A stretch of 64,000 bases of DNA from Octopus vulgaris (lineage: Eukaryota). A model generated the notes under the pieces. It made no database searches and was not told where the DNA came from. It saw only the letters and a list, made by a program, of their open reading frames with translations. Below, one piece after another: positions 6,856-42,133 of the stretch. The stretch is from assembly GCA_951406725.2 (NCBI GenBank), contig OX597815.1:180234001-180298000 (forward strand). The letters are read 5' to 3'. Positions within the stretch are counted from its first letter, which is position 1, and the number at the start of each line of letters is the position of its first letter. A program made the translations under genes and the position numbers.

Positions 6856-7270
6856 ACATTATTTACATTCGACAGATATTTATTCTCATCTTGTTTGTTG
6901 CTAACACAATGTTTTGGCTGATATACCCTTCAACCCTCATCAGGTGTCTTGGGGAAATTTCGAACCTGGGTTCTCATTCCTAAGGTATTTTTCAATGTTG
7001 TTATTATTATTATTATTATATGCCCATGGGCATATGGCACAGTAGTTAAGAGCATTGGCTACTAACTCCAAGATTCCGAGTTCGATTCTAAGCAGTGACC
7101 TAAATAGTAATAATAATAATAATAATCATAATAATAATAATAACAACATTGAAAAATATCTTGGGGATGAGAACCCAAGTTCGAAATTTCCCCAAGACAC
7201 CTGATGAAGGGTGGAGCATATATCAACAAACAAGATGAGGACAAATATCTGTGAAATGTAAATAAAGTAT
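6856..7270. mobile_element. Inverted pair of Penelope-linked tRNA-head/(AAT)n/hammerhead units (pair 1)
   Basis: Minus copy 6856-7017 and plus copy 7028-7270 around palindrome ATATGCCCATGGGCATAT; CTGATGA cores at ~6937-6943 (-) and 7201-7207 (+). Confidence 0.8.
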
Positions 7271-7796
7271 ATGATGTGAATATAAATGGTATGGTAGAGG
7301 ATTGCCCAGAGTGCATGAATAGGGAGTTCATATGAATGCTAAAGGGGGTGGGAGAGGGGATGCACTGACTAGTGAAACCTGGATATATATATTTCTTTAT
7401 TGCCCACAGGGGCTAAACATAGAGGGGACAAACAAAGACAGACAAAGGGATTAAGTCAATTACATCAACCCCAGTGCGTAACTGGTACTTATTTCATCGA
7501 CCCCGAAAGGATGAAAGACAAAGTCAACCTGGATATATAGGAGGGTGACAGGATAGCAATGATACAGTTGTCAGGGCAGGAAGGACAGGATTGGGCTGGA
7601 GGAGTAGAGGAAGGAGAGCTAAACATGAAGAATATGAGGAAGGGAAGAAGCAGTCTGATTTATTGGGTTAGGGTCACATGGTTAAAGATTCTATCTTGTA
7701 GCATAGTATTTTGAGCAAATGTCTTGTTACAGTCTCAATGTACCCTTGCTTTGTGAGTGAAACAGAGCAGATAGAAGTCGTACAAAGTCTCATTAA

Positions 7797-7848
7797 CCCT
7801 TTTGATACCAACCCAAAAGAATCCGCATCTGGCTCTGAGTACAAAGGG
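7797..7848. mobile_element. 52-bp piggyBac-type micro-MITE
   Basis: TTAA-CCCTTT...AAAGGG-TTAA; 5' part matches the MITEs at 8149 and 20841. Confidence 0.7.
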
Positions 7849-8148
7849 TTAAGAAAAGTGAAAATGGAGAGTGAATTGATTTAATTCCTCACAGTTTACT
7901 TGTCTTTATTAGTTCGCACAATTGTTGCCAGGTTGTTGGGGAAAATGTCAGTTAGTAAGGTTATCTGCAAGAAAAGCCAGCAAATAACCTTAGCTCTTAG
8001 GATTAGTAGCAGTGAAAGCAACAGAAGGACTAAATTCTCATCAGAACAGACCAATATTTTGTGATAATCAACATGAAGAAGGAAGATAATAGAGCAACTA
8101 AAAGTCCACTCACATCGTCAACCGTCAATTAGAGATGAACATGATTAA

Positions 8149-8367
8149 CCCTTTCATTACCAACCCGGCTGAAACCGGTTTGGGCTCTGAGTATAAATGT
8201 CGTTTACATAAGTTTTGGATTAAAATCTTCCACCAAACCTTAGTCACAATTTATGTTCCTAACTCTAGCTGAATGGTAACTAATTTATTTTACTAAATTC
8301 TTTGTTATATTTAAAACTAATTGAAAGAAACACAGAGCATCTCAACAGAAGTGTGGTAATGAAAGGG
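8149..8367. mobile_element. piggyBac-type MITE
   Basis: TTAA target duplications; TIR CCCTTTCATTACCA / TGGTAATGAAAGGG. Confidence 0.9.
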
Positions 8368-8704
8368 TTAAATGAACAATTGAAAATTGTCCTGTCACCC
8401 TCCTTGAGAATATACCCTAGTACATTGTCACCATCACCCTTGCTCTTTCTTGCTCTCCCCCCCTCTCTCTCTGATTGGGTATCCTTGTATCTCCTCTACA
8501 GCAAGGCATCTGTTTTTGTCTCTGTATTCGCACTCTAACCTCTCATCACTTGGCACAAAGACCCCTCCTTTAATACCACTCCCCTCTCTCAAAGGTTCTC
8601 TGTCCTGTAAGTTACTTGGCAACTTCACTGGTGCTGGTGTTAGTACTGGCACCAAGTAAAACGCCTCCTGTTCTCTCTGTTAAGTGGTTGGCGTTTGGAA
8701 ATTG

Positions 8705-9062
8705 TTTTTCAGCTCTATGAGACTGTTTTGAACCAAATATTTGAAGAGGAAGTTGGAAATACTGGAAATCATTATAAAGAACTGCTGAAGAACACTTGAA
8801 GTATCCTTTAGAGTATTAGAGAAAAAACCTGTTGCCATTTGGGTTTACAATAGCTTCTACTGTTTAAACTGAACATTTGGTTTCCAAGAATTTTTTCAAG
8901 ACTAACATCGGCAATAAATTAGATGAAATGAAAGATAACCTGCTTTGGAAAGATCCGGATGCAATTGCAGATATCATTGCAAGTTTAGATGAAGAAGATG
9001 ACAAAATGATAGGAAGGAAGACAGAGAAAAAACTAAATATTAAAGAATGGCCAGTTATTTGA
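8705..9062 (+). pseudogene. Possible pogo/Tigger-like transposase C-terminal remnant
   Basis: FFKTNIGNKLDEMKDNLLWKD resembles the SFKKCGISNxLDGxEDDxLW motif; highly decayed. Confidence 0.35.
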
Positions 9063-9359
9063 TAAATTAAATGATGACTTTTTTTTTTTTTTGATGACTG
9101 ATTTTGGTAATTTAAAAAAAATGAACTCATTTTATAAACAATGATGTTTTTTAAGCTATTTTAAGTAAAAGTTACACAGCAAAAAACCGGAACTATACTA
9201 GTTCTCGAGTTTGTTTTTTTTAGTTTTTGCATTCCAAGTATTTTAAGTGTTGTAGAATTTTCAGTGATTTTATGGTGATTCTTTAAAATCATCATTATCA
9301 TCATCATTTAACATCCTCCTTCCATACTGGCATGGGCTGGACATATATGTATATATATG

Positions 9360-9412
<53 letters not shown>

Positions 9413-9439
9413 ATATATATATGTTTTTTTCTTTTCTTT

Positions 9440-9651
9440 TTTTTCCTTTACTTGTTTCAATCATTTGACTGCGGCCATGCTGGAGCACCACCTTTAGTCG
9501 AACAAATCGATCCCCAGGACTTATTCTTTGTAAGCCTAGTACTTATTCTATCGGTCTCTTTTGCCAAACTGCTAGGTTGCGGGGATGTAAACACACCAAC
9601 ATCGGTTGTCAAGCGATGGTGGCAGGACAAACACAAACACACACATACATA

Positions 9652-9693
<42 letters not shown>

Positions 9694-40109: not shown

Positions 40110-40284
40110 TTAATCCTTTAGCATTCAGATTACTCTGTCGAATGTACTGCTTATTTATTCACATTGCTTTGAATTAATCATGCATTACATTGTAGCTTTG
40201 AGATTTTGATAATGTGCTTGATGAGAAAATCCAGGTAGAGTATATGGGCCGGATTTAGCTGGTTTAAATGCTTAAGAGTTTAAT
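40110..40284. mobile_element. Decayed piggyBac-type MITE (family of 63219-63439)
   Basis: TTAATCCTTTAGCATTCAGATTACTC...TTTAAATGCTTAAGAGTTTAA. Confidence 0.7.
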
Positions 40285-40494
40285 TCAAATTTCCTATTAA
40301 CTTTCTGTGATATTTTCTTTTCTACATTGATATGTCATTTACACATTATATATATTATTTACATTTGATGGATATTTGTCCTCATCTTGTTTGTTGTTAA
40401 CATAACATTTCAGCTGATATACCCTCCAGCTTTCATCAGGTGTCTTGGGGAAATTTCGAACCTGGGGTCTCATTCCTAAGGTATTTTTCGATGC

Positions 40495-40554
<60 letters not shown>

Positions 40555-40555
40555 C

Positions 40556-40958
40556 ATTGCCTTTTCACAGCTTCTAACGCTGGAGATGTACTATGGCGTC
40601 AGTTGTTCACTACCTCTTATTTTTTGAGCACCTTCCGGAGCATTTGAGCAGTTCCAAGCAGTGCTGTTTTTCGCAAGTGCTCCACTCTTATTGCAGCCCC
40701 TACTTGTTCAACGTACTTCTCGAGATTTTTGCTCTCTGTTCCTAGGGCTCCGACAATTATTGGTACTACTTCTTCCTTTTTCATTGACCGCAATTGCTTA
40801 ACTTCCCAAGTTAACCTATCATACATCTCAACTTTTCTTTCTTCCTTATCGCATACCTTATTGTCTGCTGGGCATGCTGTATCTATGATCCAGCATAGTT
40901 TGGTTCCTTTCTCAATTAAGACTATGTCTAACTTCCTAATCTCTATCTCATGGTCGCA
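40556..40958 (-). mobile_element. R4/Dong-like non-LTR retrotransposon 3' fragment (restriction-like endonuclease)
   Basis: DHEIEIRKLDIVLIEKGTKLCWIIDTACPADNKVCDKEERKVEMYDRL...VVPIIVGALG...KTALLGTAQMLRKVL*; (AAT)n on both sides. Confidence 0.85.
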
Positions 40959-41089
40959 CTATTATTATTATTATTATTGTTATTATTATTATTATTCAGG
41001 TCACTGCTTGGAATCGAACTTGGAATCTTGGGGTTAGTAGACCACGCTCTTAACCACTACGTCCACAGGCATATGGTGTAAAAATAATG

Positions 41090-41126
<37 letters not shown>

Positions 41127-41175
41127 CATTGAAAAATACCTTAGGAATGAGAACCCAGCTTCAAACTTTCCCTAA

Positions 41176-41221
41176 GATACCTGATGAAGGCTGGAGGGTA
41201 TATCAGCTGAAATGTTGTCTT
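41176..41221 (+). ncRNA. Minimal type I hammerhead ribozyme (family 1, well-preserved core)
   Basis: GAUAC CUGAUGA A GGCUG GAGGGUAUAU CAGCU GAAA UG UU GUCUU. Confidence 0.7.
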
Positions 41222-41854
41222 AACAACAAACAAGATGAGGACAAATATCTGTCAAATGTAAATAATGTAAATAATGTACATAATTCCTCATCTCTTAAAT
41301 ATAGAACTCCACATTATATGGTTGACAGAATCAATTCAAAAGTGGATTAATGTCATAGAAGAAGGCCTAATTTTGAAAAAAGTACTTTTCACTAATCGAT
41401 AAAACATCAATCTCCAGTGAAGATTGTTACCTGAAAAGCTTGAATTTTCCTCTTCTTCTTCATAGCAAACAAGATTAACTCACTTTTGAACTGACCATCA
41501 CAAATTTCCTTGCTTCCACTGGTTAATATTCCAAGATTGATAGCTTCATCTAATTTGGCACACGTTAGCTGCTTCAGTCAATTTTTCTTTTGCTTCAAGA
41601 TATAAACTAATTATTTTGTTGTTACACAAACATTACCAGAATTTCTTTCTTTCCTTACTCCAATAATTTTTCTGCAAAGCTTGTTATATTTTCTTGCAGA
41701 ATCTTCTGGAAGATTTTTAAGAACTGCCAACATAATCTTTTGTCTAGTTTTCTGATCTTATCTCTTTTATTTATTTCTTTAATCCGTTTGTGTTTCTATA
41801 CATTCATCATTGATTATCCTGGCTGTCCATATAAGATCATCTTCATTTTTAATA

Positions 41855-42133
41855 ACATACATTACTTGTACATTTTTTTACATTATTTACATTATTTACA
41901 TTTGACGGATATTTGTCTTCATCTTGTTTGTTGTTAACACGTTTCGGCTGATATAGCCTCCAGCCTTCATCAGGTGTCTTGGGGAAATTTCGAACCTGGG
42001 TCCTCATTCCTAAGGTATTTTTCGATGTTATTATTATTCAGTGACCTAAATGATAATAATAAGAAGAATAAGAAGAAGAAGAAGAAGAGGAAGGAGAAGA
42101 AGAACATCGAAAAATACCTTATGAATGAGAACC
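41855..42133. mobile_element. Inverted pair 5 of the hammerhead unit (heads largely deleted)
   Basis: Minus unit with GACAC CUGAUGA A GGCUG..CAGCC GAAA CGUGUU at 41934-41978; partial plus unit CAGTGACCT-(AAT/AAG)n-CATCGAAAAATACCTTA. Confidence 0.75.

Follow-up and report, generated by a model that had tools for sequence, protein, structure and literature searches.

Mirror-image pairs of a Penelope-like pseudo-LTR with a tRNA-like head in the genome of Octopus vulgaris

The unit that recurs in the analysed stretch of Octopus vulgaris DNA (64,000 nucleotides, hereafter the window) belongs, as its pseudo-LTR, to an autonomous Penelope-like family and is not a free SINE/retrozyme hybrid, and the five mirror-image pairs found there are decayed single insertions of the terminal repeat of this protein-coding element. 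The pseudo-LTR begins with tRNA-like A and B boxes, followed by (AAT)n, and this tRNA-like head probably serves as a Pol III promoter and so fixes the 5′ end of the element RNA.

The five loci in the window

At all five loci a minus arm is followed by a plus arm with the heads pointing inward (Table 1), as the first-pass annotation had described, although the first locus spans 6824-7277 and not 6856-7270. The unit of about 250 bp proposed there does not describe locus 2, because its plus arm begins inside the endonuclease coding region (22693), and the length of loci 3 and 4 is due to younger elements inserted into their (AAT)n tract. Most of the head is kept by four of the ten arms (7023-7100, 23032-23110 and 34737-34808 on the plus strand, 40990-41061 on the minus strand); of the box sequences quoted earlier, the A-box 11-mer has a single exact match, at 23044, whereas the B-box 12-mer has no exact match at any of the five loci. 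No hammerhead copy in the window is perfect, and the one at 40.4 kb keeps stem II paired through compensation, both as first noted. The attribution of several defects to CpG transitions agrees with the genomic copies, in which CpG sites are ~25% diverged versus 3-6% at the remaining sites. ARAGORN called no tRNA in the window, Rfam gave no hammerhead or tRNA match there at E≤1, and the LINE fragment of locus 4 has no informative Pfam match.

Table 1. Features of the five window loci (element coordinates: 0, element 3′ end; negative values, upstream)
Locus	Feature	Position	Strand
1	Target-site duplication, left copy, 14 bp (sequence reading)	6810..6823	+
1	Tail-bearing arm, element -202 to 0	6824..7017	-
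1	Partner arm, 32 nt short of tail; contains tRNA-like head (A box 7035), (AAT)n and hammerhead (deletion)	7021..7277	+
1	Target-site duplication, right copy	7271..7284	+
2	Inverted arm, -189 to -33, without tail; hammerhead region 22592-22637	22538..22694	-
2	Penelope ORF, C-terminal endonuclease region; in-frame stop 22876-22878; ORF stop 23005-23007	22693..23007	+
2	Imperfect hairpin/palindrome across ORF-side flank and head 5′ end	23017..23056	+
2	tRNA-like head; A box 23044-23054, B box 23089-23098	23037..23110	+
2	(AAT/AAC)n and truncated body	23111..23189	+
3	Inverted arm, -235 to -39, long (AAT)n	34481..34725	-
3	Plus arm, head portion	34737..34808	+
3	Younger repeats nested in (AAT)n: LINE 3′ part with tandem repeats, another SINE-like repeat	34830..38540	.
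3	Nested LINE RT fragment	37241-38290	-
3	Plus arm, body and tail	38560..38745	+
4	Inverted arm body, -202 to -32; hammerhead 40399-40444, compensated stem II	40343..40513	-
4	Younger LINE 3′ fragment in minus-arm (AAT)n; 113-codon open frame	40560..40965	-
4	Inverted arm, head portion	40977..41061	-
4	Tail-bearing arm; ORF start codon region near 41148; hammerhead 41176-41221	41060..41308	+
4	10-bp duplication	41310-41319 / 40342-40351	
5	Inverted arm, -193 to -31; hammerhead 41935-41978, 3-nt deletion at stem III	41879..42038	-
5	Remnant of plus arm: final 9 nt of head, repeat tract, body start	42039..42133	+

An autonomous Penelope-like family

The unit is not a chance resemblance, since a 26-nt stretch of its tail has 5,159 exact matches genome-wide and its reversed control none; the family is estimated at ~20,000-60,000 copies in the 2.8-Gb genome. 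Its period of 2.65 kb comprises the head, (AAT)n, the start codon, a hammerhead motif within the first codons, the tail, reverse transcriptase (RT), endonuclease and stop codon, and the next head begins 26-32 nt past this stop. In 74 of 82 ORF ends, window locus 2 included, the tRNA-like head lies directly 3′ of the RT-endonuclease ORF. The assignment to a Penelope family is upheld, whereas the view of it as a non-autonomous derivative is wrong because the head belongs to the autonomous element.

The family majority sequence contains an 835-codon frame running from the pseudo-LTR AUG, upstream of the hammerhead, on through this motif, and the foreign protein P0003 has the same N-terminal register. 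The RT domain matches PF00078 with 33.1 bits, a DKG motif is present in one natural copy (L292), and the ORF has 2,980 homologues; a PDB search gave weak RT matches only, and no relatives were found among viral contigs. The window endonuclease fragment matches the C-terminus of P0003 at 52% (E 4e-17), the Y/C/Y/E/R/R/E/H columns are invariant, and three homologues (P0069, P0073 and P0096) carry PF01541 (GIY-YIG). The family's own ORF has no direct Pfam endonuclease match, P0003 itself reaching just E 0.23, and it is by homology and motif that an endonuclease of the GIY-YIG type with CCHH is assigned to the C-terminus. The extra Zn-finger linker that separates Neptune/Nematis from the Penelope/Poseidon type (PMC8557442, available parts) is absent from the L292 translation; by ORF motifs and insertion layout, the family fits an EN+ Penelope-like element (PLE) of the Penelope/Poseidon type. 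All examined copies are decayed; with gaps counted, the median identity of their alignments to the family majority is ~89%.

Inverted pairs as single insertions

Inverted pairs make up 129 of 179 tail-anchored loci genome-wide and four of five loci within arbitrarily spaced stretches that total 370 kb, so that the earlier statement that only inverted pairs exist holds within the window (5/5) but not for the genome. Each head-to-head pair represents a single insertion, with the tail on one side and often one target duplication: the tail-bearing arm ends at 0±2 in 76/90 cases and the partner arm at -24 to -48 in 56/61, and a flanking duplication of at least 8 nt accompanies 32 of the 53 scored pairs. 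Non-CpG variants are common to arms of the same locus at 8.0%, versus 2.3% between loci (61 loci), which fits a common template, a subfamily or gene conversion and does not by itself prove fold-back. The upstream ORF is carried in tandem by 4 of 29 ORF-start loci, and a partial tandem pseudo-LTR, an inverted truncated partner and a one-sided tail are all present in the family.

Penelope elements are already known to have the inverted pair layout, and for Anolis PAc both the tail and internal priming have been shown (PMC11167929, in part). The element RT/endonuclease, predicted to be a dimer in the Anolis homologue, would cut both strands and prime two cDNAs at two tail start sites. Priming on the first pseudo-LTR of the RNA would limit each cDNA to ~280 nt or less, up to the RNA 5′ end, and joining of the two cDNA ends by microhomology, or via the palindrome at the RNA start, would yield SINE-looking head-to-head pairs; longer arms would come from RNAs that include an upstream ORF.

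The tRNA-like head and the probable start of the element RNA

The A and B boxes are intact and canonically spaced in the family majority. Compared with ten tRNAs, the head scores z 7.7-7.8 to two tRNA-Arg genes of the same genome, and one close genomic copy reaches 23.8 bits to the tRNA model, below the cut-off of 29. Both boxes together were found in none of 39 foreign Penelope loci, and low-threshold ARAGORN matches in that comparison were treated as noise. As the first pass had proposed, the terminal repeat carries the head, which does not occur as a free SINE: 223 of 243 head matches have the body downstream, and of the others 3 lie at locus edges, while 17 either follow the ORF, lie in inverted junctions or precede a later insertion. 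A free SINE donor was not found in 1.44 Mb, mostly family-selected, with single-sequence nhmmer, which missed real tRNA genes too.

Most copies end at the tRNA-like head, and therefore the RNA likely starts there. Among 114 arms reaching the A box in two separate samples, 85 end at the head, 66 of them at -270 to -284 (33 of 66 arms in sample 1 and 33 of 48 in sample 2) and 19 at -285 to -299, where those inspected were mostly fold-backs; tRNA +1 of the head is -277. Arm ends were taken from BLAST and may be off by a few bases, and 33 of 294 arms, with their end in (AAT)n, were excluded. An internal promoter at the pseudo-LTR start is described for D. virilis Penelope (PMC2377424, in part).

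The same pile-up could arise if the tRNA-like piece were inert, left by an old tRNA or SINE capture in the same pseudo-LTR, with the RNA made by Pol II read-through or from tandem arrays and a hairpin or palindrome at the 5′ edge of the head causing RT to stop, fold back or anneal to a second cDNA, a reading that we consider unlikely but worth serious weight. A hairpin does lie at -297 to -259 in the ORF-derived RNA (-13.4 kcal/mol, family majority sequence), and at this very place it could halt RT or promote fold-back; perfect fold-back junctions are frequent (of the 85 pile-up arms, 27 have their end at -284, -291 or -294), and an excess of ends is already seen at -255 to -269. However, 43 of 67 arms whose partner is unable to pair via the palindrome still end at the head (expected, 3.6% per 15 nt), several exactly at tRNA +1, the ends mostly fall at the hairpin loop or beyond it and not at the hairpin 3′ base, and stem II of the hammerhead gives no comparable stop. 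The intact boxes also speak against an inert passenger, although the cloverleaf is degenerate, as does the gap behind the stop codon, which is so short that it leaves little room for another promoter. RNA-seq (three runs of one study, in which the family takes ~0.05-0.06% of reads) fits passive read-through and may count against a Pol III start, with both strands about equal and no informative pile of read ends at the head. Also counted against the Pol III start are 29/114 arms that extend beyond the head into the ORF; together with the tandem upstream ORFs, they indicate that other RNAs exist.

The lack of TTTT across 2.65 kb of the sense consensus favours the Pol III start over an inert head and would allow Pol III to read the whole period. 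TTTT is present in 38 of 39 foreign Penelope families, 2.6-4.0 occurrences would be expected in the ORF (P 0.03 and 0.01), and natural copies have 0.34 per kb versus a median of 4.6 per kb in the 39 foreign families and 2.3 per kb in the 11 with T≤23%. The depletion is nevertheless modest (dinucleotide shuffle, P 0.06); runs of four G are likewise absent from the sense consensus, the closest foreign family (L345) also has no TTTT in a 1,419-nt frame, and L292 has three.

Transcription from the head by an internal Pol II promoter overlapping the tRNA-like piece would account for the pile-up with a capped, translatable RNA, and a possible splice acceptor can be read from the sequence just 5′ of the start codon. 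This explanation, modelled on the D. virilis Penelope-like promoter (PMC2377424, available text), is nevertheless improbable; it explains neither why the start coincides with tRNA +1 nor why TTTT is lacking, and no splice joint across the head-to-AUG region was found among the RNA-seq joints listed (15 of 105 and 15 of 41).

A Pol III start at the head allows a wider scenario, which we regard as possible but doubtful. An autonomous, protein-coding Penelope would have swapped its Pol II promoter for one captured from a tRNA and cleared the whole 2.65-kb sense strand of Pol III terminators. A single Pol III RNA would then template full-length copies and also, when primed internally at the first pseudo-LTR, SINE-like inverted pairs in the tens of thousands, the element thus serving as its own SINE.

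The hammerhead motif and the cut site

The hammerhead-like consensus drawn up in the first pass is the family majority sequence, and it has the features of a candidate minimal hammerhead of the pseudo-LTR type. Its stem III palindrome, given as AACGUU, is reduced to ACGU in the active fold: by established hammerhead numbering, the A and U at its two ends are core and cleavage-site residues. Of 195 genomic copies spanning the motif, 5 are identical to the consensus and 51 keep the core, both stems and the stem III CG. The Rfam Hammerhead_1 model, proposed earlier as a check, does not report the family motif; its 6 genomic matches include none from the family. In the minimum-free-energy fold of the majority monomer, the hammerhead core is mispaired with stem III, and single copies fold no better than shuffles.

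That a non-autonomous SINE/retrozyme hybrid yields a Pol III transcript trimmed by hammerhead self-cleavage before copying, as the first-pass annotation had suggested, is highly improbable and already largely refuted. The arms mostly measure less than 300 nt and consist of head, repeat and body only, schistosomes offer a precedent (PMC6765202, in part), and pooled 5′ ends near the cut number 16 versus 7.4 expected in an 11-nt window. The excess, however, is confined to sample 1 (10 versus 3.5) and was rejected as unproven, since sample 2 does not replicate it (6 versus 3.9; tight window, 2 versus 1.8); both sides of the cut site are kept. A separate short subfamily was not seen, the head is contiguous with the ORF, the pairs are head-to-head without head-to-tail tandem monomers bounded by hammerhead cuts, and insertion of PAc in vitro is unaffected by hammerhead mutants (PMC11167929, in part). 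No cut-to-cut back-joint was found among the same listed RNA-seq joints, in libraries ill-suited to small circles. The hammerhead would likely be a dimer- or protein-assisted motif that does not set copy ends.

Comparison with known elements and implications

The ribozyme motif and the mirror layout are already known for the Penelope class. In the available parts of the sources, EN+ PLEs (D. virilis Penelope, PMC2377424; Anolis PAc, PMC11167929; PMC8557442) share with the octopus family a single ORF with RT and C-terminal endonuclease, a pseudo-LTR with a promoter expected at its start, an inverted 5′-truncated partner, a one-sided tail of 30-40 bp and a hammerhead overlapping the ORF start. 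D. virilis Penelope, however, has a TATA-less Pol II-type internal promoter and an intron instead of tRNA-like boxes and (AAT)n, and the PAc start codon is at stem II, whereas the octopus one precedes the whole hammerhead. The minimal type I hammerheads of metazoan PLEs (PMC4209133, in part) are alike in core, the unpaired base before stem II, the 5-bp stem I and the palindromic minimal stem III; the octopus motif, known here from its sequence, differs in its GUU triplet. That source also describes opposite-strand hammerhead pairs 100-700 bp apart, and since head-to-head octopus copies place their two motifs on opposite strands, they form no cis dimer.

The combination of a Pol III promoter with a hammerhead, first thought to be undescribed, is present in the schistosome Sm-alpha/Sj-alpha SINE-like repeats (PMC6765202, in part); these are non-coding tandem repeats cut into monomers, in contrast to the head-to-head terminal repeat of a coding element. 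TRIMp3 elements (Cassandra, Helenus and Ajax) similarly hold a tRNA- or 5S-derived Pol III promoter, proposed to be captured from SINEs, inside their terminal repeat, but are non-autonomous LTR elements with PBS/PPT, a different class, and PMC10886601, in its available part, argues that autonomous partners must use Pol II; their layout of two direct LTRs without an ORF differs from the inverted arms, PLE tail and ORF found here. Metazoan non-LTR retrozymes are likewise short hammerhead units related to PLE pseudo-LTRs, but form head-to-tail tandems giving circular RNA, and the available parts of PMC7229834 and bioRxiv 10.64898/2026.07.22.740005 mention no Pol III or tRNA head. No such head in a PLE pseudo-LTR was found in the literature searched, a scope without most subscription journals, Repbase, Dfam and SINEBase, and within it the A/B-box start of the pseudo-LTR, the arm ends at the head and the TTTT-free sense consensus were not found in print. 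The available part of PMC13282606 does not mention hammerheads, and its repeat library may already hold this family.

Inverted Penelope pseudo-LTR copies can be mistaken for SINEs in annotation. With its thousands of genomic junctions, the family provides a test of the internal-priming, two-strand model that in vitro work on Anolis PAc led to, and these junctions speak against copy ends being set by hammerhead cleavage. With ~70% of loci being inverted pairs and the family represented in RNA-seq reads, these pairs may be a large source of dsRNA for A-to-I editing. Pol III-promoted retroelements in the literature consulted, as far as its available parts go, are non-autonomous, and a coding Penelope starting with a tRNA promoter would, if true, be an exception.

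Pol III RNA is uncapped, and translation of the ORF is therefore unexplained under a Pol III start. If this start is true, it raises the question of how an uncapped RNA with a ribozyme motif in its first codons gets translated.

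Structure and abundance of the unit

The terminal repeat recurring at five loci of the window is the pseudo-LTR of an autonomous Penelope element, in which the 3′ UTR of one period is joined to the promoter region and ORF start of the next. This follows from the ORF running into the tRNA-like head, from a reading frame that starts inside the unit, and from a foreign homologous protein, P0003 (55% identical), whose N-terminus is likewise encoded through the hammerhead in the same register. At locus 2, the plus arm begins in coding sequence matching the C-terminus of a Penelope-type protein; a search with this stretch yielded at least 2,701 candidates, and in the loci fetched the coding sequence runs directly into the head. 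Among all own-genome loci collected, 74 of 82 distinct ORF ends lead into the head, and the remaining 8 resemble internal deletions or truncations. Coding copies ending in the unit, as envisaged in the first-pass annotation, exist, and locus L061 contains a nearly complete copy that includes an RT domain. Nor does the head occur mostly as a free SINE, the alternative considered there: heads without a body make up 17 of 243 head matches, and none resembles a free-standing SINE. The family majority sequence, built in scripts and numbered backwards from the element 3′ end (0) in a version that carries a variable 9-nt tail unit twice, has a period of 2.65 kb and a 780-codon frame; if begun at an AUG within the unit (-162), the frame reaches 835 codons and passes through the hammerhead.

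BLAST and alignment within the window resolved ten arms at the five loci. The motif agrees with the hammerhead-like consensus proposed earlier, yet all window copies are damaged; the folding of single copies does not surpass that of shuffled sequences, and within the window Rfam called no hammerhead and ARAGORN no tRNA. In the genome (2.80 Gb, 227 contigs), a 26-nt stretch of the tail has 5,159 exact matches (reversed control, 0), and 37 arbitrarily spaced 10-kb stretches contain 5 loci, 4 of them inverted; the two estimates give about 20,000-60,000 loci genome-wide.

Features in the window and in compared loci
Feature	Location	Strand	Observation
Locus 1	6824-7277		14-bp duplication
Locus 2	22538-23189		truncated
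Locus 3	34481-38745		weak 7-bp duplication
Locus 4	40343-41308		10-bp duplication
Locus 5	41879-42133		truncated
Loci 1-5 as a cluster	6824-42133		five in 64 kb, ~6x genome average; P ~0.002, rate from 5 loci only
LINE 3′ part	34830-38300	-	nested in locus 3; RT and PHD/C1-like cysteine motif, then roughly six tandem repeats of 340-390 bp
LINE C-terminal fragment	40560-40965	-	113 codons, inside (AAT)n tract
U6 snRNA copy	42236-42339	+	93.8 bits, with 3 nt deleted, 100 nt downstream of locus 5; another repeat directly 3′; likely a retrocopy
B-box 12-mer, exact	54846		outside all copies of the Penelope family; probably another tRNA-derived repeat
Different abundant SINE-like family (D11, D13, D15, D19)	11015-11260, 29314-29560, 38329-38574, 42330-42745, 48922-49330, 51155-51700, 59761-59905, 61477-61703		at least 13 window copies
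Closest metagenome PLE (48% identity)	L345 3001-5100		1,419-nt frame without TTTT; T-rich 3′ UTR, without tRNA head
tRNA-Cys-like genes	L256 138-2854		seven clustered, two with altered anticodons
Other hammerhead families in the genome, unrelated to the unit	L451/L452/L455 (~1501-1608); L453/L454/L450 (~1501-1550)		very long stem II in one of them; PLE families without a tRNA head at L451-L455

Inverted pairs and insertion

At all five window loci a minus arm precedes a plus arm, as the first-pass annotation had stated; its further claim that the unit exists only as inverted pairs stands for the window and fails genome-wide. Among 179 loci chosen by the tail only (90 in chromosome order and a second set of 89, one overlapping locus having been dropped), an upstream inverted arm is present in 129, within 60 nt in 115. 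Each inverted pair is a single event, because the ends of the tail and partner arms are offset and flanking duplications are present. In sample 1, the tail arm terminates at 0±2 in 76/90 loci and the partner arm is 24-48 nt short in 56/61, and a flanking repeat of ≥8 nt, in some cases a microsatellite match, was found in 32 of 53 scored pairs. Such head-to-head pairs are a PLE signature already described (PMC8557442, PMC4209133), and they agree with Anolis PAc, for which RT starting at two internal sites and cleavage of both strands are described (PMC11167929). Loci 3 and 4 were later elongated by other elements inserted in (AAT)n. The fragment within locus 4 resembles the restriction-like endonuclease of Dong/R4 elements, which insert into repeats of this kind; Pfam gave it no supporting match.

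The tRNA-like head and the 5′-end pile-up

In the head, the A box lies at -270 and the B box at -225, which would place the tRNA +1 at -277, 32 nt beyond where the stop codon begins. Its cloverleaf is degenerate, and tRNA-Arg, which gave the best alignment (two own genes, z ~7.7, 10 tRNAs compared), is a candidate source. Of the 39 foreign Penelope loci whose sequence extends ≥200 nt beyond the endonuclease, not one has both A and B boxes.

The 5′ ends of the arms accumulate at the head start, where the ending rate is ~4.7 per 100 nt at -270 to -284 versus 0.1-0.4 outside -255 to -349 (33 of 294 arms, ending in (AAT)n, were excluded). Of 114 arms reaching -270, 66 stop in -270 to -284, 19 in -285 to -299, and 29 continue; the pile-up recurs in both samples of tail-anchored loci (33/66 and 33/48). 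Most of the ends inspected between -284 and -297 fold back perfectly at a short palindrome immediately 5′ of the tRNA +1, which is consistent with a template ending near -283. Arms whose partner is unable to pair via the palindrome show the same pile-up (43/67), and an explanation by the hairpin only seems to us rather unlikely, if still worth weighing.

Terminators, transcripts and the hammerhead

The majority sense strand has no TTTT run over 2.65 kb (P 0.008 and 0.06 against mononucleotide and dinucleotide nulls, 0.03 against a synonymous shuffle, 0.01 against a third-position model), and such runs occur at 0.34 per kb in natural fragments (77 non-independent pieces totalling 94 kb). In four further RT families from the same genome the frequency is 1.7-5.3 per kb. 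A sufficiently long frame was available in 44 of 79 foreign loci; TTTT runs occur in 38/39 foreign PLE families (median 4.6 per kb, observed/expected 1.09), and the 11 foreign families with T ≤23% have 2.3 per kb. Since one foreign frame has no TTTT and one natural copy (L292) has three, the absence is no more than suggestive. A Pol II promoter overlapping the head is in our judgment improbable; the Pol III reading does not account for the translation of an uncapped RNA. In three raw RNA runs of one study, picked by species label, the unit accounts for 5,900-8,100 records per 11.5-12.9 million and shows no strand bias or informative end piles, a pattern compatible with passive transcription of many copies and with no bearing on a short Pol III RNA.

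The hammerhead motif conforms to the minimal type I class. Its core positions diverge by 3.7% versus 4.3-5.7% in the flanks, which is weak evidence, the copies being dead. The best fold of the monomer mispairs the core, and head-to-head pairs carry their two motifs on opposite strands, so that the pair layout does not supply a hammerhead dimer. Ends near the cut (-92) numbered 10 versus 3.5 expected in sample 1 and 6 versus 3.9 in sample 2, an excess that was not replicated, and the SINE/retrozyme trimmed by self-cleavage that had first been suggested is now very improbable.

A proposed captured promoter

The hammerhead, inverted ends and tail of PLEs are already known; a Pol III promoter together with a hammerhead is described for schistosome repeats (PMC6765202), and tRNA promoters in terminal repeats for the non-autonomous TRIMp3 elements (PMC10886601). 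In the literature searched, PMC13282606, PMC7229834 and bioRxiv 10.64898/2026.07.22.740005 among it, no description turned up of an autonomous PLE whose pseudo-LTR bears a tRNA head; repeat databases lay outside the search. We favor, with moderate confidence in the steps taken jointly, a scheme in which the element acquired by capture a tRNA or SINE head at its 5′ end, in the place where Penelope of D. virilis keeps its internal promoter (PMC2377424). Pol III would begin near -283 to -277, and priming at the first tail would give short cDNAs that would then be joined head-to-head.
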